Below, piece by piece: positions 4,618 through 38,883 of a stretch of 64,000 nt of DNA. Below the pieces are notes generated by a model, which made no database searches, was not told the origin of the DNA, and saw only the letters and a list, made by a program, of their open reading frames with translations. This DNA comes from Candidatus Melainabacteria bacterium SSGW_16. Lineage in GTDB: Bacteria > Cyanobacteriota > Vampirovibrionia > 2-02-FULL-35-15. A program made the translations under genes and the position numbers. The stretch spans positions 446 through 64,445 of the forward strand of contig DUDS01000019.1 of the NCBI GenBank assembly GCA_004769085.1, read 5' to 3'. Within the stretch, counting starts at the first letter, position 1; the number at the start of each line of letters is the position of its first letter.

Positions 4618-5724
4618 ATGTTATTCACAGATACTATTAAAGAACCAATTTTAAGTAGAGAAGGCAAAAAATTAAAGCCACCTATCTTTCTTACAGGGTG
4701 TGGTAGATCAGGAACATCTTTATTACAAAGAGTTATATCAAATCACAAAAATATCTACTCCTTTAGGTCTGAAACTCACTTTTTTGGGAGATACTACAAT
4801 ATTCCATCATTGAAGGAAGTTAATATTGAGAATCTGTTGGAAAGTGCTAAATATACTGGTGCAATGGAAGTTTTTTATAAGGAGTTTGAAAGTAACCAAG
4901 ATTATGAAAACCTAGCTCTCTCATTGCTTTCTGTAATGTTTCATACCATAGAAATTGCCCCGGATATGGTTAAAAATAAGAATTATCAAAGCAACGTACT
5001 ACAAATTTATGGAGAAATCAAAGAACTTGATGATTATAAAAACGTAAGCAACAGATATGAAATGTTTAACCTCTTGGCAAATCACTTAACAATAAAATCA
5101 AATAAAAAAAGATGGGCAGACAAGTCTTCTGTGAATATGTTTAATACACATACAATTTTAGACTTTTTTCCAGATGCAAAGTTTATTGAAATATACAGAG
5201 ATCCAAGAGGAGTATATTATTCCTGGACAAGATGCCCGTTTAAGTTTTTTAGATTAGCAAGTCCAATTACATGCTCAGAAATGTGGAGAAAAACTTCTAG
5301 ATTAGGAGAAAAACTTGAAAAAGAACTGAATGGCAAATATTATAGGATAAAATATGAAGATTTGCTTATAAGTCCCGTAAAAGAGGTTGAAAAGATCTGC
5401 AACTTTATTGAAGAAGAATTTGATCCTAATATGCTTCAGGTTAAAACTACAAATAGCTCCTTTAGACAATACAATGGTAAAGAAGGAATAGACAGTCAAA
5501 GAACAAGCCACTGGAAAAACTCACTATCAAAAAGTGAACTTATCTTTATAGATTTTGCTACAAGAAAAAATAGAACAAACCTTGGTTATCCTGACATTGC
5601 ACCTAGGTTAACACCTATAAATATCTTACCCTTTTTAGTATTTTTTACTAAACTGTGTCTAAAAGCTAAAACAAATCCTATTAAGTATATTAAAAAAATA
5701 ATAAAAGAAGATGCAAACACTTAA
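4618..5724 (+). CDS. Sulfotransferase (PAPS-dependent, Sulfotransfer_3-like)
   Basis: KPPIFLTGCGRSGTSLL is the 5'-PSB P-loop-like motif, and EIYRDPRGVYYSW is the 3'-PB RDPR motif. The ORF-track start at 4519 would overlap the divergent permease gene, so I prefer the ATG at 4618 (MLFTDTIKEP). Confidence 0.7.
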   Translation: MLFTDTIKEPILSREGKKLKPPIFLTGCGRSGTSLLQRVISNHKNIYSFRSETHFFGRYYNIPSLKEVNIENLLESAKYTGAMEVFYKEFESNQDYENLALSLLSVMFHTIEIAPDMVKNKNYQSNVLQIYGEIKELDDYKNVSNRYEMFNLLANHLTIKSNKKRWADKSSVNMFNTHTILDFFPDAKFIEIYRDPRGVYYSWTRCPFKFFRLASPITCSEMWRKTSRLGEKLEKELNGKYYRIKYEDLLISPVKEVEKICNFIEEEFDPNMLQVKTTNSSFRQYNGKEGIDSQRTSHWKNSLSKSELIFIDFATRKNRTNLGYPDIAPRLTPINILPFLVFFTKLCLKAKTNPIKYIKKIIKEDANT

Positions 5725-7495
5725 AAGTACAACTCAAACTAAAAAGATAACAACAAATGCTTTTGACATAAAATTAAAACCACCTATTTTTATATTAGGT
5801 TCTGGTAGATCAGGAACCTCACTACTTAGAAGTATTTTGAATAATCATCCTGATATTTACTGTATGGAAGGAGAAACTCATTTATTTTCACCGGAGTCAA
5901 ATCCTTATCTTGAAGAATTAGAATTTTTTCAAAGTTCAAATGACATTAAAAGCTTAATATTTACAATTATTTCATCTATATTATTTGGGCATGAATGCAC
6001 AGCTCTATTTGCAAGAAGAAAGAAGTTTCCAAAGGAAGTTATTGAAATATACCACGATCTTCAAGACTTCCTTTTGACTGTAGGCTCGCAAGAAAAGTAC
6101 AAAATCTTTAATATTTGTATAGGACACATAACACTGAAAGAAAATAAAAAAAGGTGGCTTGAAAAAACTCCAAACAATATATTTAATTTACCTGATATTC
6201 TCTCCCTTTATCCAGATGCAAAGTTTATTGAAATATACAGAGATCCAAGGGGAGTATATTATTCCTGGAAAAATGCTAAGCAAGATTATTTTAAAAAAAC
6301 TAATATTATTGAGTGTATAAAAAAGTGGAGCAAAACTTTTGAGTATTCAAAAAAATATGCTCATGAGTTACCAAATCAATTTTACAAACTCAAATATGAA
6401 AACCTGGTCGAAGATCCTAAAGTAGAACTGATTAGTCTTTGTAATTTTTTAAATGAAGATTTCAATCAGTCGTTACTAGGGGTGACAACAAGGAGCCTTG
6501 GTTTTGACGAGACTTCAAGCACTACTATATGGAAAGATAATCTAATAAAAAACGAATTACTATTGATTGACTTGAAAACCAAGGAATACAGGAAAGAGCT
6601 TGGCTATATTGATTCCGGAGTAAAACTTAATTTAATTAACATGATTCCATTTTGTCTTTTTTATATAAGAAACAAATTTTTTGGTCGAATAAATTTTCTT
6701 ACTGAAAAGCTTTTTGGTCAAATCAATTTTCTTACTGAAAAGCTTTTTGGTCAAATCAATTTTCTTGCTAGAAAGCTTTTTGGTCGCATAAATCTTCGTA
6801 CTGAAAAGCTTTTTGGTCGCATAGCTTTGCTTATTAATAAATACATAGCTATTGCAAATGAACTTCTTCAATCAATTTTAAGGAAACCATATTCCTTTAG
6901 AAGAAAATGTAAAACTTTGTATTGGGTTATTAAAAGAAAAAGAAAGGTACAAGAGTACATTGATACGCATAAGGTTAAAAAACTTCACATAGGAGCTGGT
7001 CCTAATATGCTTAAAGACTGGTTAAATACAAATATTATGCCAATTACAAATGAAGATATTTTTTTAGATGCTTCAATACGTTTTCCATTTGATGGTAATA
7101 CTTTTGATTGCATATCTATTAATCAGTCCATAGAGTATCTGAAATATAACCAGTCCAAACACTGTTTGAATGAGTGCTTCAGAGTCTTGAAGCCAGACGG
7201 AAAAATCAGGATCATTACCGTAAATTTGGAGAACTTTATTAAAATCTATTCAAAGAAAGACCCAACAAAAGAAGAAAAAGATTACATAAAATTTGTAATA
7301 GATTCATGCATGCCAGATATTGGCATCTATAAAAATGCTTTTATTATGAACAGTCTGTTTAGCAGGCTTAATTATAAATTTATTCATGACTATGAATCAC
7401 TGAATGACATGCTGGAAAAAATTGGATTTATTTACATTAATTTTTTATCAAAGAATGATTTCGAGACTTTAGTGGTTGAAGCCAGGAAGCCATAA
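5711..7495 (+). CDS. Bifunctional sulfotransferase / class I SAM-dependent methyltransferase fusion with internal 11-aa tandem-repeat linker
   Basis: The N-terminal domain has KPPIFILGSGRSGTSLL and EIYRDPRGVYYSW, a sulfotransferase paralog of the upstream gene. The middle carries FGRINFLTEKL x about 5. The C-terminus has HIGAGPNMLKDW...FDCISINQSIEYL...CFRVLKPDGKIRI, a Methyltransf_11-like SAM-binding fold. Confidence 0.75.
   Translation: MQTLKSTTQTKKITTNAFDIKLKPPIFILGSGRSGTSLLRSILNNHPDIYCMEGETHLFSPESNPYLEELEFFQSSNDIKSLIFTIISSILFGHECTALFARRKKFPKEVIEIYHDLQDFLLTVGSQEKYKIFNICIGHITLKENKKRWLEKTPNNIFNLPDILSLYPDAKFIEIYRDPRGVYYSWKNAKQDYFKKTNIIECIKKWSKTFEYSKKYAHELPNQFYKLKYENLVEDPKVELISLCNFLNEDFNQSLLGVTTRSLGFDETSSTTIWKDNLIKNELLLIDLKTKEYRKELGYIDSGVKLNLINMIPFCLFYIRNKFFGRINFLTEKLFGQINFLTEKLFGQINFLARKLFGRINLRTEKLFGRIALLINKYIAIANELLQSILRKPYSFRRKCKTLYWVIKRKRKVQEYIDTHKVKKLHIGAGPNMLKDWLNTNIMPITNEDIFLDASIRFPFDGNTFDCISINQSIEYLKYNQSKHCLNECFRVLKPDGKIRIITVNLENFIKIYSKKDPTKEEKDYIKFVIDSCMPDIGIYKNAFIMNSLFSRLNYKFIHDYESLNDMLEKIGFIYINFLSKNDFETLVVEARKP
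6680..6830 (+). repeat. In-frame 33-bp tandem repeat (about 4.5 copies) inside the sulfotransferase-methyltransferase gene
   Basis: Units tttggtcgaataaattttcttactgaaaagctt / tttggtcaaatcaattttcttactgaaaagctt / ...gctagaaagctt / tttggtcgcataaatcttcgtactgaaaagctt. They encode the FG(R/Q)INFLTEKL hendecad repeats. Confidence 0.9.
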
Positions 7496-8748: not shown

Positions 8749-9160
8749 TTTCTTTTGAAGCCTTAAAGCTTATTGAGTCAAAGTATAAATCTTCCAGCGA
8801 TATTGATTTCAATATGCCATATATATTACGGTTTAATTTTTGCCACAGCTGATTTGTTACTTCAAAATCTCTGGATGAATTAGGAGCAACATTTACAGGG
8901 CCTTCAACAGCCTGAATAATATCTGCAAGTGATATTTGTTTTATATCCCTGGAGAGCACGTAACCCCCTGCAGGTCCACGCATGCTTTTTACAAGACCGG
9001 ACTGTCTGAGTTTTATAGCAATTTGTTCTAAAAAAGGTAGAGGAATATTCTGGGTATCTGCAATTTCTCTAAGTGACACAGGATTTTTTGATTTAGTCTT
9101 ATGCAATGCAATGCCAATCATAGCCTGGATTGCATATTGTCCTTTAGTGGTTAACTTCAT
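8729..9160 (-). CDS. iscR: Rrf2-family transcriptional regulator (IscR-like)
   Basis: MKLTTKGQYAIQAMIGIAL...VSLREIADTQNIPLPFLEQIAIKLRQSGLVKSMRGPAGGYVL is the Rrf2 wHTH domain. It lies immediately upstream of iscS. The start is set at MKLTTKG rather than the upstream in-frame Met at 9193. Confidence 0.75.
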   Translation of the reverse strand: MKLTTKGQYAIQAMIGIALHKTKSKNPVSLREIADTQNIPLPFLEQIAIKLRQSGLVKSMRGPAGGYVLSRDIKQISLADIIQAVEGPVNVAPNSSRDFEVTNQLWQKLNRNIYGILKSISLEDLYFDSISFKASKENETYVQ

Positions 9161-9246
9161 AGTTAAATTATAATATAGATACTTATGCGTCATTTGAACT
9201 CACCTTAAAAATCAAGTGCAATCTTTACAGCTTTTATAAGAAAACC

Positions 9247-9360
9247 TTAAGTGTGCTTACACAAAAGCGAAACCCATACCCTAAGCGCAGCGTTGGAAGC
9301 GCCAAGCGGACAAGCGGAGCATGGGTATGGGTTGAGCATAAAAAGTGTAAGCACACTTAA
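9247..9360. repeat. GC-rich ~113-bp nested-hairpin element, copy 1 (TIR ttaagtgtgcttacac / gtgtaagcacacttaa)
   Basis: Perfect 16-bp terminal inverted repeat. Inner stem aaacccataccc / gggtatgggtt. GC-rich core in an AT-rich genome. It lies 10 bp after the fliR stop and is near-identical in architecture and sequence to 22676-22788. Confidence 0.85.
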
Positions 9361-9369
9361 ATAACAGTA

Positions 9370-10155
9370 CTAATACAAATACCTGTTAGGATCCAGAAAT
9401 AGTTTTGCTAAAATCTGAAACAAAGCCGGAAGAAGAATCAACATGAGCAATATACCTACTGAAGGTTTTATTGAAAAACTAACCTGAAAAGCATTAATCT
9501 GAGGGGCAGCTCTCGACATAAGACCAAGTATTAAATCAACAGTAAGAAGTATCATAATAATTGGTGAAACAATAAGAAATGCAATTGAAATTAAATCTGC
9601 AGTAGCTTTTAAAAGTTTAAGAAAATTAAAATTAAAGCTGTATACAATTACCGGGAAAGTATTATAACTTTTGAATAGTCCTTCAATAACCTTTTCCATT
9701 CCTCCAATTGAAACAAAAATCACAAGTCCAAGCATATTAAAGAAATGTCCCATTATTGTTGTTTGACTTTGTGTACCAGGATCAAAAACAGTTGCTGCAT
9801 TTAATGCCATCTGCGAATCAAGCATTTCACCTGCAACCCTTGCAATCTCAATCACAAGGCTTGAAACCCACCCGATAAACATTCCAATCGCTGCATTCAT
9901 AAAAATCAGATAAATAAATTTATAACCCTTTGGATATTCTGAAGGTGTATCAATCATTGGCATAAATATTAATGAGAGTACAATTGCAAAACCTACCTTT
10001 ACAAGTGCGGGTATTTGTTTGCTTCCAATTAATGGTGCTGTGCTTATAAAACCAATAGTCCTTGCAAAGATCAACAACAAAATAATCCATACCCCGCCCA
10101 GTTGGGTAAGAATTTTTGTTTCATTAATTATAAAATCAAACATCAAATACCTCAT
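9370..10155 (-). CDS. fliR: Flagellar type III export gate component FliR
   Basis: 261-aa polytopic membrane protein. ARTIGFISTAPLIGSKQIPALVKVGFAIVLSL matches the FliR N-terminal region. It is the last gene of the fliPQR operon. Confidence 0.8.
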   Translation of the reverse strand: MRYLMFDFIINETKILTQLGGVWIILLLIFARTIGFISTAPLIGSKQIPALVKVGFAIVLSLIFMPMIDTPSEYPKGYKFIYLIFMNAAIGMFIGWVSSLVIEIARVAGEMLDSQMALNAATVFDPGTQSQTTIMGHFFNMLGLVIFVSIGGMEKVIEGLFKSYNTFPVIVYSFNFNFLKLLKATADLISIAFLIVSPIIMILLTVDLILGLMSRAAPQINAFQVSFSIKPSVGILLMLILLPALFQILAKLFLDPNRYLY

Positions 10156-10931
10156 TCAAGCCAGGTGGGTGGCACCTGATCCTTTGGAGCAGTATCAGAT
10201 TCATTTACAGTTTTTGGATTGTCTTCAATTACATCCTGAATACCTATAGGGGAAGCATTTTGAGCAGGGGCTTGTATTTCATTTACATTTGCCTGAGGAT
10301 TTTCATTCTGCTTAATAATATTTGTTGCCGGTGAAGGCACTGGTGTAGGGGTAGGGGTTGGAGCAGGAGCAGTCTGAATATTTGTTAACTCTTGTTCTTT
10401 AACATTTAAAGAATCTGTCTGGGTTTCAATAATTTTATTTTGGTTTATCGGAATAGAAGGCGGCAATAGTTTTGTTATCTGAGGAGGATTTGGAACTTCA
10501 GGTGCACCGGCGTATGGTACTCCAGGCGGCACACCCCCCTGAGGAAGAAGCTCTTCAATTTTTTCAGCCTTGGGAAGTTTTGGTACAGGAATCTCATTCT
10601 CTTCATCAAAAGTAATATTAAATTTATTTTCATCAAAAGCACCTGTAGGGACTGCTTTTTGTGATTGTTTAGGCACAAATGAAAAGGCCGAGTTAAGTGT
10701 CCTTGTTGCATATTGATTTAAATACTGATACATCCAGAAACCTGCAATAATAATCAGTCCAAAAACCCCGATAATTTTTAATGCAGAACCAATTGTCTGT
10801 TCCTGCACCTGTGTAGCAGCCTGCAGAATACCAATCACAAGACCAATTAATGCAGCAGCAAGCACAAGAGGTCCTGAAACAATCAATACAACGATTATTC
10901 CATCCCTAACTGCTTGTGGCATCCATTCCAT
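10152..10931 (-). CDS. fliQ: Flagellar export gate component FliQ with ~170-aa Pro/Gln-rich C-terminal extension
   Basis: The first ~88 aa (LAAALIGLVIGILQAATQVQEQTIGSALKIIGVFGLIIIAGFWM) align with canonical 89-aa FliQ. The ORF then continues through a low-complexity P/Q/T-rich tail (PTPTPTPVPSPATN) and overlaps the fliR start by 4 bp. Confidence 0.7.
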   Translation of the reverse strand: MEWMPQAVRDGIIVVLIVSGPLVLAAALIGLVIGILQAATQVQEQTIGSALKIIGVFGLIIIAGFWMYQYLNQYATRTLNSAFSFVPKQSQKAVPTGAFDENKFNITFDEENEIPVPKLPKAEKIEELLPQGGVPPGVPYAGAPEVPNPPQITKLLPPSIPINQNKIIETQTDSLNVKEQELTNIQTAPAPTPTPTPVPSPATNIIKQNENPQANVNEIQAPAQNASPIGIQDVIEDNPKTVNESDTAPKDQVPPTWLE

Positions 10932-11050
10932 TTTTTATTTGAAAACATTTAGGCTTAAATGTTTTCTTTCCTCCTCGGCGCTCAAAATATTGCTCCTCGC
11001 AACATTTTTCGCTTATCTACTTATCCCCCTTGTACAGATGATATCTCAAG

Positions 11051-11701
11051 CTAATTAAAGCTCTGGACAAGCCCTTTAATAATAAGCGTCCAGCCATCTA
11101 CAGCTACAAATATTAATAACTTAAACGGAAGAGAAACAATAGTCGGAGACAACATTATCATACCTAAAGCAAGAAGTATATTAGCGATAATAAGATCAAT
11201 CACAAGAAAAGGAATGAAAATTAAAAACCCAATCTGAAATGATGTTCGCAATTCACTCAACAGATACGCTGCTACAAGCTCTCTGAAACCAACCTGATCA
11301 GGATTTTTTGGATTTGGAGATTTACTCAGACGATAAAAAAAAGCTAAATCTTTCATGTCAGTCTGCTTCAGCATATAATTTCTAAGTGGTTTATATGCTT
11401 CTCCAACTGCCTGTGGTACAGACATCTGCTGATTACTAAGAGGAATAAGAGCCTTCTCATTCATCTGCCCCAGAGTAGGACCCATTACATAACCAGTAAG
11501 TATAATTGCCATTCCGATTATTACCAGATTTGGCGGCACCTGCTGAGTACCGATTGAGGTTCTAAGCAAGGAAAGAATAATTATTATTCTTAAAAAAGGA
11601 GTCATCGTGACTACTATTAATGGAAGCATTGAAAGCAGAACAAGCAGTACTACTATCTGTAAGGATGGTTCTAAATTAGGCAGAAGATTTTCCCAGTTCA
11701 T
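11051..11701 (-). CDS. fliP: Flagellar export gate component FliP
   Basis: TPFLRIIIILSLLRTSIGTQQVPPNLVIIGMAIILTGYVMGP matches the FliP signature (FTRIIIVxxLLRxALGT...PPNQV). Confidence 0.85.
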   Translation of the reverse strand: MNWENLLPNLEPSLQIVVLLVLLSMLPLIVVTMTPFLRIIIILSLLRTSIGTQQVPPNLVIIGMAIILTGYVMGPTLGQMNEKALIPLSNQQMSVPQAVGEAYKPLRNYMLKQTDMKDLAFFYRLSKSPNPKNPDQVGFRELVAAYLLSELRTSFQIGFLIFIPFLVIDLIIANILLALGMIMLSPTIVSLPFKLLIFVAVDGWTLIIKGLVQSFN

Positions 11702-11711
11702 TTTTTATACC

Positions 11712-11972
11712 TTAAAATATCCTTATCCCTTTTTGAGAAGAAAATAGTTTTAGTTTTTCACCAGCAGGCATTAGAAGTTCATAAAGAGCAGATTTCAGAA
11801 TAACCTTCTTTTTCTTTACAATTTTTATATCAGGAATCCCTGTTAATGCGCCATAAAGCAGCCTTGCAGCAATATTTGATTCTTTTGCTACCCAGAATGC
11901 AAAGAGAGAAACCAGTCCCCCGCCAAGAAAAATAATCATTAGTTTTAATAAAAATGAAAAAATAAATTCCAT
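11712..11972 (-). CDS. Small single-pass membrane protein, FliO/FliZ-like by position
   Basis: 86 aa with one hydrophobic helix (IIFLGGGLVSLFAFWVA). It sits between the fliN-like gene and fliP, where fliO usually lies. The call rests on position only. Confidence 0.4.
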   Translation of the reverse strand: MEFIFSFLLKLMIIFLGGGLVSLFAFWVAKESNIAARLLYGALTGIPDIKIVKKKKVILKSALYELLMPAGEKLKLFSSQKGIRIF

Positions 11973-11975
11973 CTT

Positions 11976-13166
11976 CTATGTCTCTTCAAGGTCTTTCAAT
12001 GCATCAGCAAAAGAAGATGACTGTTCAGTTTTTGTCTGCTGCCCTTTTCCGAGAAGATCATCTATTTCCACAGTAGAACCAGTTGTCCCCTTGGCACCTT
12101 TCTTGGAACCAATCAACAGATCTGTAATCCTCATCCCAAACTGGTTTCCAATAATTACAAGTTCACCTTTTGCAACCGGCTTACCTTGTGCAGTTAAAAC
12201 AAGTTCAGAATCAAGCACCGGACCCAATGGAAGAACACCGCCTGATTTAAGTTCCAGGACCTGCTTCAAAGGAATTAACACCTTCTGGAATTCCGCGGAT
12301 AACTCCAGAGGAAGACTTGAAAGCGGGTCATCATCGTAATTTTGTGGATTTTTTGCCATCTCTTTGGCCAATTGATTTATATTACTAATCCCCTGTAAAA
12401 AAACAGGGTGATCGCTTTCTGGTAAGACGAGACTTATTTCACCTAAGTGCCAGTAAAATTTGCTAATATCACTATCTTCAAAAACAAGAAGGTCCCCGGA
12501 CTCCAGAGACTTGACATCATTCACCGAAACCCTCGTAGAGCCAACTTTTAAGCTAATTGGGACCTTTATACCCGTATTAGCAAGTTTGTTAATATCTATA
12601 ACTTGTTTTCCTTCAAGTGTAACTTTTTTTGGCTTTAAGCTTGCAGGTATACCATATGCAATTCTCCCGATCTCTGCCTCTTCTGATTCAATTAACCATA
12701 CAAGATATATTAAATCCAAAAGATATGCATGTTTTACATCAACCTCCCAGTACTCTCTCATTTTATTTTCAATATTTACAAGTAATCCCTGAAGTATCTG
12801 AATCTCAAGCTGTGTAATTCTTTTTATGCTGAATGGCTGGTTTACAGGAGATGGTCCAAAAGCATGGTTCAAGAGGAAATCAGCCAGCTTCTCATCTATT
12901 CTTATCTGACCATTCTGATTATTATGCTGCCATGAACCTGCAAGTCCAATCCAATTATTTAAATCCAAATCAAGAAGTATTGCAACAATTTTTGTTTTTA
13001 CCCTCAAACCAAAAAATTTTAAAAATATATCCTGTAAATCAATATTTTGATCTGACCACTGAAAAAGGTTATTAATTAAAGGTTCATTTACAATTTGAAA
13101 AGAATCAGGTTTTAGTGGATTCAACCCAATTTGTCTTATTAGCTCTTTGTTCTTATTCTTTGTCAT
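11976..13166 (-). CDS. Flagellar motor switch protein, FliN/FliY family (SpoA domain) with long N-terminal region
   Basis: LVLTAQGKPVAKGELVIIGNQFGMRITDLLIGSKK matches the FliN SpoA surface-presentation domain (GEVVVV.DKFGVRITDI). It is the first gene of the fliOPQR operon. Confidence 0.6.
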   Translation of the reverse strand: MTKNKNKELIRQIGLNPLKPDSFQIVNEPLINNLFQWSDQNIDLQDIFLKFFGLRVKTKIVAILLDLDLNNWIGLAGSWQHNNQNGQIRIDEKLADFLLNHAFGPSPVNQPFSIKRITQLEIQILQGLLVNIENKMREYWEVDVKHAYLLDLIYLVWLIESEEAEIGRIAYGIPASLKPKKVTLEGKQVIDINKLANTGIKVPISLKVGSTRVSVNDVKSLESGDLLVFEDSDISKFYWHLGEISLVLPESDHPVFLQGISNINQLAKEMAKNPQNYDDDPLSSLPLELSAEFQKVLIPLKQVLELKSGGVLPLGPVLDSELVLTAQGKPVAKGELVIIGNQFGMRITDLLIGSKKGAKGTTGSTVEIDDLLGKGQQTKTEQSSSFADALKDLEET

Positions 13167-13221
13167 ATTAGAGAATACCTTTTAAATTTCCCGTTCTTAA
13201 TGTTATTATTCCCTTTTTTAC

Positions 13222-13256
13222 TCAGGTGGCTCGCTCATAATGAGACTCGCCACCTT
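13222..13256 (-). promoter_or_regulatory. Conserved 35-bp imperfect palindrome (motif A: aaggtggcgagtctcattatgagcgagccacctga) upstream of fliN-like operon
   Basis: Identical 35-mer at 31286-31320 upstream of gyrA, in the same orientation relative to the downstream gene. Arms are AGGTGGC/GCCACCT with a central CTCAT-t-ATGAG. Confidence 0.6.
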
Positions 13257-13294
13257 TCACTAGTACACTTAATATAGGCTAAATTTAACAGTTT

Positions 13295-13328
13295 AAAGGT
13301 TTTGCCAAATAAATTGGTCAAAACCTTT
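13295..13328 (-). promoter_or_regulatory. Conserved dyad motif B (aaaggttttgNccaa-N5-6-ttggNcaaaacct) upstream of fliN-like operon
   Basis: A near-identical dyad at 31214-31245 sits 40 bp upstream of motif A in the gyrA leader. Here it lies 38 bp upstream of motif A on the minus strand. Confidence 0.55.
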
Positions 13329-20283: not shown

Positions 20284-20727
20284 ATGTCATTCAAATATCG
20301 TTTAGAAAAAGTCCTGAAGATTCGAGAAGAACAACTCGATGAAGCAATACTTAAAATGAAAAAAGCAGAAGAAAATCTTAAATCCATTTCATACGATCTC
20401 AGTGTAACAACTGAACACAGAAATGATCTTCATACTGAACTTATAAAAGAGGGATTATCACATGCAACTCTCTACGTAAGAAGGATTAAGCAACTGAATG
20501 AAAGAATTGCAAAATTAGAAAAAGATCTTCAGTCCGCACAAGATGCACTTATTAAGGCCAAAGAAGATGTAATCGAAGCAAAGATGAAACTTGAAGCTCT
20601 GAAAAAACATAAACAGAAAAAATACAGTGATTATATAAATGAAGAAAACAGAAAAGAAAGACTTATGCTGGATGAAATTGGTGTACTAAAGCACACAAGA
20701 GAGCTGATAGAAAGTAGGGAGGAATAA
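20284..20727 (+). CDS. fliJ: Flagellar export chaperone FliJ-like coiled-coil protein
   Basis: 147 aa, entirely coiled-coil (YRLEKVLKIREEQLDEAILKMKKAEENL). It lies upstream of FliK-like and rod-protein genes. Confidence 0.5.
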   Translation: MSFKYRLEKVLKIREEQLDEAILKMKKAEENLKSISYDLSVTTEHRNDLHTELIKEGLSHATLYVRRIKQLNERIAKLEKDLQSAQDALIKAKEDVIEAKMKLEALKKHKQKKYSDYINEENRKERLMLDEIGVLKHTRELIESREE

Positions 20728-21519
20728 GTGGCTGGACCAATAATACAACCTGGCGACACAAAAGCCTTCAGACTTGGAATAAGTTTGCTTGATAATCCTT
20801 ATGTAAAACCTGCCAGTGCACTAAGCTTTGAAGAAGTACTGGATAGCAAAACAAAAGAGGTTACAGAAAAAGTAAAAGATGAGACTGTTAAAACCTCGGA
20901 AGAAACTTCTGACACGAAAAACAAGAAGTTAGACAGAAACTCAAAAGATGAACTTTTTAACATTAATAAGATAGTTCAAAATGACAGAAACCAAGGTGCT
21001 GAATTAAAAAACACATACACATTATTAAAGCAGTTTAAACAAAACAGGAAATCCTATGAGGAAGAGTCTTCAAAAGGATCAAGACACAACACTCTAACCA
21101 ATGTATACAACGCTGCAGGACAACCCCAAATACAAGCGACTTACGAAAGAGGATCACAGAGAAGAATGTCAAAATCACAACTTCTCAATTTGTGGGAAAA
21201 AGTAGCTCCATGGATAACAGAAGACGCAATGAAGAAATCAATTAGGGTTGACATTCCATTGGTAAATGACATACAAGCCCTCGTACTTAGAATGCACCCG
21301 GACAAAAGTGTAACAGCATCACTTCTGGGATCAGAAGAGATGGGAAAACTAATCAAAGAAAACAAAGACAAGCTTGACAGAAACCTAAAGCATCACAAGC
21401 TCTCATTAAGGGAATTTAATACCTATCATTCAGAGCTTACATTTAATTCGGAATCCGGAACAAAGAAACAAAAGAAAAAAGCAAAAATAGGTGACAAGAA
21501 ACAGGTAGATTTAATTTAA
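20728..21519 (+). CDS. Flagellar hook-length control protein FliK-like
   Basis: The C-terminal region IRVDIPLVNDIQALVLRMHPDKSVTASLLGSEEMGKLIKEN resembles the FliK Flg_hook domain (LRLQLHPEELGRV...). It sits between fliJ and a rod/hook gene. Confidence 0.45.
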   Translation: MAGPIIQPGDTKAFRLGISLLDNPYVKPASALSFEEVLDSKTKEVTEKVKDETVKTSEETSDTKNKKLDRNSKDELFNINKIVQNDRNQGAELKNTYTLLKQFKQNRKSYEEESSKGSRHNTLTNVYNAAGQPQIQATYERGSQRRMSKSQLLNLWEKVAPWITEDAMKKSIRVDIPLVNDIQALVLRMHPDKSVTASLLGSEEMGKLIKENKDKLDRNLKHHKLSLREFNTYHSELTFNSESGTKKQKKKAKIGDKKQVDLI

Positions 21520-21541
21520 GGTTTAGAAGGAGAAAGAAAAC

Positions 21542-22426
21542 ATGTTTAACTCAACAACAATATCAGCAAATGCAGCCCAGTCATCACTGGAATTGATTGA
21601 CATACTGTCAACAAACATAATCAATTCAGAAGCCCCTGGTTTCAACAGCAAAAGATTTTCATTTCATGATTATCTTACAGGTGGACAGGTAGAAATTAAT
21701 GGTAATTCATGGAGACAAGGGAAAAAAATTGTCAGAGTGGGTGAGCCAACCAAAATGATGCTCTCAGGAAAAGGCTTTTTTACAACTGTAAATCCACAAA
21801 ACAATGAGATCCTTTATACAAGGCTTGGTGATTTTAATTTTGACAGAAGCGGTTACCTCGCAACACAGGAAGGTTTTCTTCTTTTAGGAACACCTTTGAT
21901 ATCAAATGTACAGCCAAAAGGTGGTAACTCACAGTACAAAACTCCAGGAGCAAAATATGATATTTCTACATTTGTGGATCCTTTTAATAATCCTTTAAAC
22001 AGAGAGCATCCACAGGCAGATCAGGGAGCAGCACTAGGTGGCCCACAGCCAATTAATCTGGCAGTTGATCCAACAAACGGACTATACCTGGGCAAATATG
22101 AAAAAATAAGAATTGATGAATCAGGTGTGGTTTGGGGAAGATACGGTGATAGTGAAGTATCCCTCTATAAAATTACACTTAATAATTTTCAAAATCTAAA
22201 TGGATTGAAAAATTTCCGCGACACATACTGGAAGCAAACTTCAGAAAGCGGTGCCCCGCTTCCGTGCAGTGCAACAGTATTCAATGAAGCTTTAGAAAAA
22301 TCAAATGTATGGGCAAAGGTCGAGGTTGATTACATTATTGAAGCTCAAAGACAATATTCCGCTGCAATAAATGCTCACAAGGTAGCAGACAGACTGATGC
22401 AGCAAGCAATTGAACTTGTTGGTTAA
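21542..22426 (+). CDS. Flagellar basal-body rod / hook family protein (FlgF/FlgG-like)
   Basis: The N-terminal motif LSTNIINSEAPGF matches flg_bb_rod. The C-terminal SNVWAKVEVDYIIEAQRQYSAAINAHKVADRLMQQ matches the FlgG C-terminal motif (SNVDLxxEMVNMIxAQRxYEANSK). Confidence 0.7.
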   Translation: MFNSTTISANAAQSSLELIDILSTNIINSEAPGFNSKRFSFHDYLTGGQVEINGNSWRQGKKIVRVGEPTKMMLSGKGFFTTVNPQNNEILYTRLGDFNFDRSGYLATQEGFLLLGTPLISNVQPKGGNSQYKTPGAKYDISTFVDPFNNPLNREHPQADQGAALGGPQPINLAVDPTNGLYLGKYEKIRIDESGVVWGRYGDSEVSLYKITLNNFQNLNGLKNFRDTYWKQTSESGAPLPCSATVFNEALEKSNVWAKVEVDYIIEAQRQYSAAINAHKVADRLMQQAIELVG

Positions 22427-22466: not shown

Positions 22467-22493
22467 AAAACCCCTGGGAAACCAGGGGTTTTT
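22467..22493. terminator. Bidirectional Rho-independent terminator
   Basis: aaaaCCCCTGGgaaaCCAGGGGttttt: a perfect 7-bp GC stem, GAAA loop, and A-tract / T-tract on either side. It serves the convergent rod-protein gene (+) and carA (-). Confidence 0.75.
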
Positions 22494-22675
22494 CATTTCT
22501 TTATACCGGTTTTTGTCACGCTGCGTCGCTTCTTCGTTTTTTCATATCTTCTCTTAAGGAACTACGAAGACTCCTTGCTATTTTGATCTAATCATTTTCG
22601 ACGCTCAGATTTTCGCTATTGGAAAATCTTCGCTTTGATTCTAGTTTATCCTTGAATGTTACAAAATATTTTTGA

Positions 22676-22788
22676 CAAATGTGCTTACACAACGCGAAAC
22701 CCATGCCCGAAGTCGAGCGTTGTAGGCTTCGAGCCGTACAAGCGAGCGCAGGGTATGGGTGGAGCATAAAAAGTGTAAGCACATTTGA
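22676..22788. repeat. GC-rich ~113-bp nested-hairpin element, copy 2 (TIR caaatgtgcttacac / gtgtaagcacatttg)
   Basis: Perfect 15-bp TIR. Inner stem aacccatgccc / gggtatgggtg. It shares ...gcgaaacccat.ccc...gggtatgggt.gagcataaaaagtgtaagcaca with copy 1 and lies 14 bp after the carA stop. Confidence 0.85.
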
Positions 22789-31213: not shown

Positions 31214-31245
31214 AAAGGTTTTGTCCAATTCATTTGGCAAAACCT
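31214..31245 (+). promoter_or_regulatory. Dyad motif B (aaaggttttgtccaattcatttggcaaaacct) upstream of gyrA
   Basis: Same dyad as 13295-13328; 40 bp upstream of motif A. Confidence 0.55.
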
Positions 31246-31285
31246 GGGAAACGTTAAAGTTGGTTTATTATAAGTACGCTATGCA

Positions 31286-31320
31286 AAGGTGGCGAGTCTC
31301 ATTATGAGCGAGCCACCTGA
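31286..31320 (+). promoter_or_regulatory. Motif A palindrome (aaggtggcgagtctcattatgagcgagccacctga) 14 nt upstream of gyrA start
   Basis: A 35/35 identical copy of the element upstream of the fliN-like operon. No canonical SD lies between it and the ATG. Confidence 0.6.
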
Positions 31321-31334
31321 TTAAAAAAAATTCT

Positions 31335-38763: not shown

Positions 38764-38883
38764 AGATAATATTTTAACGCATTCTAGTAAAGGCTGAGCA
38801 AAGAATGTCTGGTAGCAACATCCTGAGCGTTGTAAATTGATGCACCAAATAGCCGAAGAGTCTGCATAGCAGCGACGAGGCGT

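Follow-up and report, generated by a model that had tools for sequence, protein, structure and literature searches.

No part of the type III export gate is smaller than FliQ/SctS, and few vary less in length; structures and assembly models assume a bare hairpin of 89 residues. The window analyzed here, a 64-kb stretch of DNA from Candidatus Melainabacteria bacterium SSGW_16, holds a flagellar gene cluster with all genes on the minus strand, in which fliQ reads on without a stop from the FliQ core into a tail rich in Pro, Glu, Asn, Gln, and Thr and encodes a protein of 259 amino acids (aa). What is this tail, and what could it do in the motor? Melainabacteria are the nonphotosynthetic sister group of cyanobacteria, and we find that the extension is a trait of the flagellated members at large, is under selection, and is new as a described feature.

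The FliQ tail: family, translation, distribution, and composition

The window protein belongs to FliQ/SctS, yet it breaks the most constant property of that family, its size. The Pfam Bac_export_3 match (72.9 bits against a cut-off of 25) is limited to residues 7–75, a FliQ in the PDB was matched by phmmer at E = 8e-12, and the 89-aa Salmonella FliQ aligns with residues 11–83. AlphaFold2 placed the core helices at residues 6–40 and 47–84, and the loop LQAATQVQEQT, of the QAATQ(x)xE type, is invariant in the family alignment. The protein is therefore like other FliQ/SctS members (PF01313; PDB 6F2D, 6S3L, 6PEM, 7CGO, and others) in its hairpin, loop, gene order, and profile score. However, the family size is about 86–92 aa, hairpin only: all seven distinct solved FliQ/SpaQ sequences have 86–89 aa, and among the 7,396 FliQ/SctS clusters found with a profile of outgroup FliQ, the best 120 of 7,396 have 88–106 aa, whereas the window protein adds a disordered tail of 171 aa. 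The initial annotation had described an extension of about 170 aa as unexpected for FliQ, and both statements hold, the extension covering residues 89–259 and the solved or sampled members outside the clade ranging from 86 to 106 aa.

To place the tail among related loci, we used a sample of one genome per GTDB species, comprising 34 loci of Vampirovibrionia, Melainabacteria, and Caenarcaniphilales (some of them mislabeled "uncultured Gammaproteobacteria" in the records) and 46 outgroup loci from Planctomycetota, Myxococcota, Bacillota, Chlamydiota, Pseudomonadota, Eremiobacterota, Armatimonadota, Chloroflexota, and Acidobacteriota; loci are cited below by L numbers. An identical 259-aa protein was called on seven contigs listed under four sources (NCBI, JGI, Logan, and ENA), which excludes a local frameshift or misassembly, and no stop or frameshift after codon ~90, the failing against which the initial annotation had cautioned, appeared on any of them. 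The fliQ frame is also open through to fliR in 34 of the 34 clade loci. An artefact by frameshift, misassembly, or a separate open reading frame (ORF), for which the unusual length alone would speak, is effectively refuted, the same architecture being present in more than 100 protein clusters as well as 34 species loci and the codon-level pattern of selection fitting a coding sequence.

This pattern was measured against the closest relative, L081 (75% identity; synonymous divergence, dS, about 1), by the Nei–Gojobori method. The ratio of nonsynonymous to synonymous divergence (dN/dS) was 0.055 for the core, 0.13 for tail residues 88–165, and 0.30 for residues 165–259, and the indels between the two fliQ genes are all in frame. 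At the tip of the tail, Ser and Leu codons vary synonymously between species while the amino acids stay conserved, implying that the protein itself is conserved, rather than its sequence being constrained by the fliR initiation region. Judged from these codon comparisons, the tail is translated, as the initial annotation had argued, and is under purifying selection. A neutral relic of an ancient stop-codon loss, tolerated as disordered and functionless, would account for the low complexity, the fast divergence, and a length ranging from about 70 to 245 residues; however, the retention of the tail in every species locus, with dN/dS well below 1 and with conserved motifs beside synonymously varying C-terminal codons, makes such a relic quite improbable.

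Ortholog comparison, by which the initial annotation had hoped to settle lineage specificity, gave a clear partition. An extended FliQ is present in 34/34 clade loci, in 32 as a complete ORF of 206–333 aa and in two as an ORF ended by the contig edge at 186 and 271 aa, and none of them has reverted to ~89 aa; across the flagellated clade loci, the tail measures 120–245 residues. In 46/46 outgroup loci, by contrast, FliQ is canonical and stops within a few residues of the core. Similarly, all 112 protein-cluster matches to the window FliQ have 155–329 aa. By this sampling of sequences, the tail is a trait of the whole clade and not of the window genome alone.

All clade members have in common a junction AFxx[VI]P....P right after helix 2, beyond which the sequences diverge into several flavors, with three being the most distinct. 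In the window's subclade, the tail ends with an acidic run and [PS][ST]W[LIV][NED]; a Caenarcaniphilales-type tail has an amphipathic end such as ...SSAIEKLKxNA or ...RIKSSI; and a third flavor is a 160-aa form of the protein with the motif YVLPxDYYKYTRPF. The simplest reading of these alignments is one origin of the tail, followed by rapid divergence. The initial annotation had also allowed that the extension might prove common and annotated. Common it is within the clade, but its records carry no label beyond "FliQ" or "hypothetical," and a description of the tail was not found in the literature on FliQ, Melainabacteria, C-terminal extension, or proline-rich or disordered regions. Di Rienzi et al. 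2013 (PMC3787301) used fliQ among the genes for phylogeny, with its length not mentioned.

From residue 84 on (176 aa), the composition is P 30, E 16, N 16, I 15, Q 14, and T 14 with no Arg, and the net charge of the tail is about −11; the string APAPTPTPTPVPSPATN, residues 188–204, is one stretch of it. AlphaFold2, run with an alignment of 92 sequences, gave no secondary structure past residue 90, with a predicted local distance difference test (pLDDT) score of ~40–60, and of 70–74 at residues 141–160, which agrees with the long flexible tail of the initial annotation. A Pfam scan of the window tail and of four other extended FliQs found nothing outside the FliQ core, a profile of the tail had no match in the PDB, and a Foldseek search with the AlphaFold2 FliQ model returned no PDB matches because the model is mostly disordered. 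The tail profile was built from 29 sequences and searched against 1.84 billion representative proteins. It gave only ten matches, in which the tail was found solely as a FliQ C terminus: eight span the junction, the tail starting at residue 79–85 straight after the FliQ core, and the other two (P0119 and P0120) are fragments. A captured or fused copy of another flagellar or periplasmic protein was considered as the source of the tail and ruled out, as the profile finds the tail on FliQ only.

Aligned across the subclade, the tail is a series of short conserved linear motifs and variable low-complexity spacers that ends with an acidic run and [ST]-W-[LIV]. Its features are, in order, FVPxQxQKxxP, FNxxF, PEKxE, GxPYLGxPExPKPP, LPP..P, LPLSDFQEP, a variable spacer, NLVPGxP, LWQREExFSE, the acidic run, and the C-terminal [ST]W[LIV][NED]. 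Among 92 homologues, K92 and G142 are invariant, W257 is nearly so (at least 90% conserved), and most sequences (about 80, counted by eye) have the acidic and [ST]W[LIV] ending; among 27 homologues, E123 and again G142 are invariant. In one tail, P0027, the variable spacer holds TonB-like (PEPKI)n repeats. The window tail keeps the proximal block of residues 119–150 and the PPTWLE tip.

Predicted location and possible role of the tail

In the Vibrio FliPQR–FlhB structure (PMC7064499), both FlhB termini are cytoplasmic, the FliQ hairpin runs opposite to the FlhB hairpin, and the FlhB loop wraps the base of the gate, touching each conserved FliQ loop. As the FliQ loop is cytoplasmic in the solved gates, the far end of helix 2 is periplasmic. 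In situ, the membrane/supramembrane (MS) ring encloses the gate, which rotates with the rod (bioRxiv 10.64898/2026.05.13.724734). From these structures, we infer that the tail would be periplasmic and lie inside the rotating MS ring.

Two further roles suggested in the initial annotation were that the tail might tether other components or span the periplasm. A TonB-like tether that runs from the gate through the periplasm to peptidoglycan or outer-membrane parts would suit the proline-rich, extended character of the tail and its predicted periplasmic location, as would the repeats of P0027, and TonB-type spacers share with the tail their Pro-richness, predicted extension, anchorage by an inner-membrane helix, and inferred periplasmic location. 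However, the window tail differs from them in having no EP/KP repeats, no folded C-terminal domain in the AlphaFold2 model, and no TonB or peptidoglycan-binding Pfam match, and its anchor belongs to the rotating rotor. With the gate inside the MS ring and turning with it, a static tether would wind up or break, and we consider a periplasm-spanning tail very improbable and less likely than docking to rotor parts. Because a tether to static envelope parts is incompatible with rotation, any partner should either belong to the rotor, as FliF ring domains, FliE, and FlgB do, or be bound only during assembly.

We propose that helix 2 of FliQ would serve as a signal-anchor that exports the tail, and that each motor would have four tails that leave the gate at its outer face and extend into the lumen of the FliF MS ring. 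There, the tail motifs may dock on rotor parts near the gate, which could be the periplasmic ring domains of FliF or the proximal rod, and docking would recruit or anchor these parts during assembly while the spacers act as flexible linkers. Motif-mediated docking of this kind, by which subunits of the MS ring or the rod would be recruited to the gate or anchored there, is our preferred hypothesis, though a tentative one. A more specific version, in which the tail would be a built-in periplasmic adaptor whose motifs and acidic-[ST]W[LIV] tip bring FliF or rod subunits to the gate, and which arose once at the base of the flagellated Vampirovibrionia, is doubtful.

The main rival to docking is an entropic bristle or spacer, in which the bulk and charge of the tail would act. 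It could, for example, cap the number of FliQ copies per gate, maintain the lipid-filled space that lies between the FlhA ring and the FliQ-bearing side of the gate, or occupy the MS-ring lumen. A bristle would explain why the sequence differs entirely between orders while disorder, length class, and Pro-richness persist, and it agrees with the relaxed constraint on the distal tail (dN/dS 0.30). In addition, over-expressed gates can take up a fifth, non-natively bound FliQ (PMC7064499), and the lipid-filled gap that separates the FliQ face of the gate from the FlhA ring in situ is wider on that side (bioRxiv 10.64898/2026.05.13.724734). However, the subclade conserves the tail at single residues, with K92, G142, and W257 (92 sequences) and E123 (27) standing out, as well as in its C-terminal motif, and a pure bristle needs none of this; we regard it as unlikely.

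The fliP–fliQ gap, its hairpin modules, and the surrounding genes

The initial annotation had drawn attention to an unusual 119-bp gap between fliP and fliQ that contains a perfect 10-bp hairpin and a GC-rich patch. Gap (10932–11050) and hairpin (10941–10966, ending 9 nt before the fliQ ATG) are both as it described. The length is indeed unusual against the 2–15 nt of most of the clade (other orders), the range in the window's subclade being 10–261 nt, but it is explained by dispersed hairpin modules rather than by a dedicated regulator of fliQ. The GC-rich patch is marginal, since the gap has 36% GC against 32% in intergenic DNA and 34% in the window, and only local stretches of 30 nt reach 50–53%.

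The RNA of the gap folds into two hairpins (−28.2 kcal/mol, z = −2.76), which are referred to as modules A and B. A scan of the 119 nt found no terminator-like or sigma-70-like promoter site, and Rfam 15 gave no match at the gathering threshold in the whole window; the sole match in 9100–11200 was a sub-threshold, chance-level ssnA inside fliP. In an alignment of seven copies of module A, 92.6% of the cells are paired, 6/12 pairs are compensatory, and 0/500 shuffles did as well. The base of this module has tandem G.A pairs, and the copies in the window, L001, and L081 have a stem G.U pair in common, which points to RNA on the sense strand. The base was also inspected as a kink-turn and rejected, as it has no 3-nt bulge or flanking C-stem and forms a plain helix with the tandem G.A pairs. 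A CsrA-type GGA is present in the module A loop of the window and not in that of L001.

L001 and L005/L100 also have module B before fliQ; its stem is fully paired (100%) in the alignment and has two compensatory pairs, although with n = 3 this covariation is not significant (54/500 shuffles as good). As an intrinsic terminator, it was rejected because it has only two G–C pairs and is followed by aaataaaaa, with no U tract. A lone perfect hairpin was likewise rejected as a significant feature, since the window has six hits for perfect hairpins of ≥10 bp, at four loci and with overlapping variants counted, against ~2 in Markov shuffles. Hairpin B owes its significance to recurrence in relatives and not to its perfect stem alone.

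Split ribosome-binding sites, with a hairpin between the Shine–Dalgarno (SD) sequence and the AUG, are known from phage T4 genes 38 and 25. Hairpin B could be such a site and tune the translation of fliQ by bringing an upstream GGAGG near the AUG. An SD sequence, a stable hairpin, a short A-rich spacer, and an AUG follow one another in three species, the order in the window, L001, and L005 being GGAGG (at the equivalent place in L001 and L005), 0–4 nt, a 26-nt hairpin, 8–9 A-rich nt, and the start codon, and the changes in the stem are compensatory. Short-gap relatives carry GGAGG/AGGAG 6–11 nt from the fliQ start, and an A+B copy in L003 that is not before fliQ has no GGAGG in its linker. However, only three sequences are involved, with covariation that is not significant, and the effective spacing would still be about 12 nt or more, longer than in T4. 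In other relatives, the hairpin is a different one and the SD is too distant; in addition, the modules occur as dispersed repeats, and SD use is rare in the window genome (8/52 ORFs). A split ribosome-binding site is thus speculative and rather unlikely. More generally, with an SD-like motif 6–17 nt upstream of the start in only those 8 of the 52 window ORFs and with A/T-rich leaders, translation initiation in this organism seems largely SD-independent.

We propose that an A+B composite would have been inserted into an otherwise tightly coupled fliP–fliQ junction, so that hairpin B now lies between the retained SD and the AUG, where its folding may keep the SD usable. In the closest relative, L081, the gap measures 215 nt and holds another set of modules, which makes the gap a mosaic hot spot that resembles repetitive extragenic palindromic (REP) sequences and bacterial interspersed mosaic elements (BIMEs), not a conserved regulator of fliQ.

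The REP/BIME sequences of enterobacteria are small imperfect palindromes combined as mosaics in intergenic or intercistronic regions. The modules described here are likewise palindromes of 26–38 nt that occur in varied order, with several copies at unrelated intergenic or intercistronic sites and a mosaic composition that varies, with quick turnover, between close relatives. They differ in their flanks, which are GCGAA...TGAGC and not a GTAG head, and in their stems, which covary rather than being identical copies; the conserved G.U suggests that selection acts on the sense-strand RNA. Copy numbers were drawn from the 64-kb window plus the short loci. The covariance model found further copies of module A at window 22600–22635 (−) and 38796–38831 (+), L003 453–490, and L005 714–749, and by locus in L001, L003 (two), L005, L081, and L095, but none in 319 kb of outgroup DNA. 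A decayed A+B composite with a trailing aaataaaaa lies upstream of fliN in L003 (453–530).

A hairpin with the loop AGCTTGTCT is present in the fliP–fliQ gaps of some relatives, and a 12-bp hairpin centered on CCRATTYAYTYGG in those of others (L007, L008, L081, L086, L087, L091, and L098, often followed by GATCAA). The latter was also seen in the fliQ–fliR gap of L003 and at window 13289–13328 and 31216–31250. These two window copies fall within 13214–13328 and 31214–31328, whose 115 nt are inverted copies of each other (83% complementary), each built from a pair of hairpin modules that includes the CCRATTYAYTYGG 12-bp stem. One longer composite is common to the L095 gap (2350–2500), L005 640–820, and window 22520–22640 (−). 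Composites of the same small modules thus occur at differing loci, namely upstream of fliN, in the fliP–fliQ gap, and downstream of carA, and their arrangement indicates mobile mosaic elements.

A GC-rich long-hairpin element of ~95–125 nt has two copies in the window, 9234–9358 and 22691–22786, that are 75–83% identical; the first is situated between the end of fliR and the beginning of rrf2. At its inner base, this element repeats the GCGAA...TGAGC signature of module A, but in the orientation opposite to that of the neighboring genes. Between a flgE-like gene and carA, which converges on it, a perfect 10-bp GC-rich hairpin at 22467–22492 has an A-run and a T-run at its flanks and probably terminates transcription in both directions.

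The order of the cluster is fliN-(fliO)-fliP-fliQ-fliR, followed by rrf2 and a cysteine desulfurase gene, and fliQ sits between fliP and fliR in this same order in 34/34 clade loci (Table 1). All relatives conserve the FliP C terminus, ...DGWTLIIKGLVQSFN. No Pfam family matches the ORF at the FliO position; in L165, a locus with the 160-aa FliQ variant, a 141-aa ORF has a weak FliO match.

Table 1 Features of the fliNOPQR locus, by position in the window
Feature	Position	Strand	Basis or remarks
fliN/fliY-like switch protein, first gene of the cluster	11976..13166	-	Pfam FliMN_C, 77.8 bits
Single-transmembrane ORF, 86 aa, at FliO position	11712..11972	-	Kept at the same place in L081 and L084
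fliP, 216 aa	11051..11701	-	Pfam FliP, 241.5 bits
fliP–fliQ intercistronic gap, 119 nt, two hairpin modules	10932..11050	-	
Hairpin module A	10977..11014	-	GCGAA, 9–10 bp stem, loop GAGGA, TGAGC; covariance model 56.6 bits
SD-like GAGGAGGA in the linker from module A to module B, 37 nt before the ATG	10969..10976	-	
Hairpin module B, gaaaacattt-aagcct-aaatgttttc	10941..10966	-	Perfect 10-bp stem, 11 bp with A-U closing pair
A-rich spacer aaataaaaa between hairpin B and fliQ ATG	10932..10940	-	
fliQ, 259 aa	10152..10931	-	Pfam PF01313 (Bac_export_3)
fliQ core, residues 1–88, canonical helical hairpin	10668..10931	-	Pfam PF01313, AlphaFold2, alignment with solved chains
fliQ C-terminal extension, residues 89–259, 171 aa, predicted disordered	10155..10667	-	
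Best-conserved tail block, residues 119–150, LPKAEKIEELLPQGGVPPGVPYAGAPEVPNPP	10482..10577	-	Family consensus PEKxE...GxPYLGxPExPKPP
C-terminal motif PPTWLE	10155..10172	-	Consensus acidic run and [PS][ST]W[LIV][NED]
fliR, 257 aa from the conserved MFDF start	9370..10143	-	Pfam Bac_export_1; start comparison at 10 loci

An ATGA overlap between fliQ and fliR had been offered in the initial annotation as evidence that the tail is translated. The tetranucleotide exists (10152–10155), but the fliR start is almost certainly the next ATG (10141–10143), at which gene callers also begin the gene. In the start comparison, FliR begins with MFD/MYD/MFE in the relatives, and in L081, the upstream ATG meets a stop after two codons. 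On these comparisons, the ATG at 10153–10155 is probably not used for fliR, and a start at this first ATG over-extends the protein by four codons. The fliQ stop TGA is embedded in GAGG, with the fliR ATG 8 nt downstream. Most relatives have junctions about as tight, with a 1-nt overlap of stop and start in L002 and L007 and 1–10 nt between them in L004, L005, L006, and L009, the exceptions being L001 (28 nt) and L003 (>100 nt with a hairpin insert). Because the junction is tight, ribosomes still must read to the end of the tail.

Several other features were observed in these loci. The conserved first codon of fliQ (M-D/E-W-M-P) is ATA in L005/L100 (3001) and TTG in L009, L090, L097, and L107, so that fliQ in these loci has either a non-ATG start or a start at the codon-4 Met. 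In L165, a gene for a 23S ribosomal RNA intervening-sequence protein (PF05635; 4516–4899) is inserted between fliQ and fliR. The window has a second small flagellar cluster at 20284–22426, consisting of FliJ, an unannotated 263-aa ORF, and a FlgD/FlgE-like protein, which housekeeping genes separate from fliNOPQR. At 6645–6842, a 33-nt tandem repeat of ~6 units, 67–92% identical, lies within ORF 5711–7495, which encodes sulfotransferase and methyltransferase domains.

Overall explanation and what the tail would mean

We consider it somewhat probable that a selected, disordered, clade-wide tail, which would lie inside the MS ring and may dock there, and a gap produced by the insertion of hairpin modules together explain this locus. 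Several points weigh against that explanation. Basic residues stand right after helix 2 (R77, K88, and K92), and the positive-inside rule mildly favors the cytoplasm for what follows. Docking, as well as any partner of the tail, is hypothetical, and the interior of the MS ring is limited, the estimate that four tails of 171 residues fit being a rough one. Moreover, the tail flavors are wholly different between orders, so that bulk properties could outweigh specific docking, and the mid-tail motifs LPLSDFQEP, NLVPGxP, and LWQREE are degenerate in the window though conserved in relatives. As for the gap, the rare use of SD sequences and the different module set of L081 leave it possible that hairpin B may have no function.

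The tail is a clean sequence marker of flagellated Melainabacteria, and "FliQ" proteins of ~250 aa in this clade should not be taken for annotation errors. The gap, a minor matter beside the tail, is evidence that a translationally coupled junction in an essential operon is open to invasion by small hairpin repeats. The extension is new as a described feature, is clade-wide, and is selected; it should be surprising to flagellar structural biologists and is testable, although it does not alone open a long-standing question. A whole bacterial class adds 120–245 selected disordered residues to each copy of FliQ, of which there are four by homology, and with these added tails, the space between the gate and the MS ring must be organized differently in these motors. 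The tail is a natural handle, for instance by way of tags or binding motifs, for studying how gate and MS ring come together and stay attached. If it proved to be an adaptor, it would represent an assembly principle encoded in the gate itself that has not been seen in any studied flagellum or injectisome.

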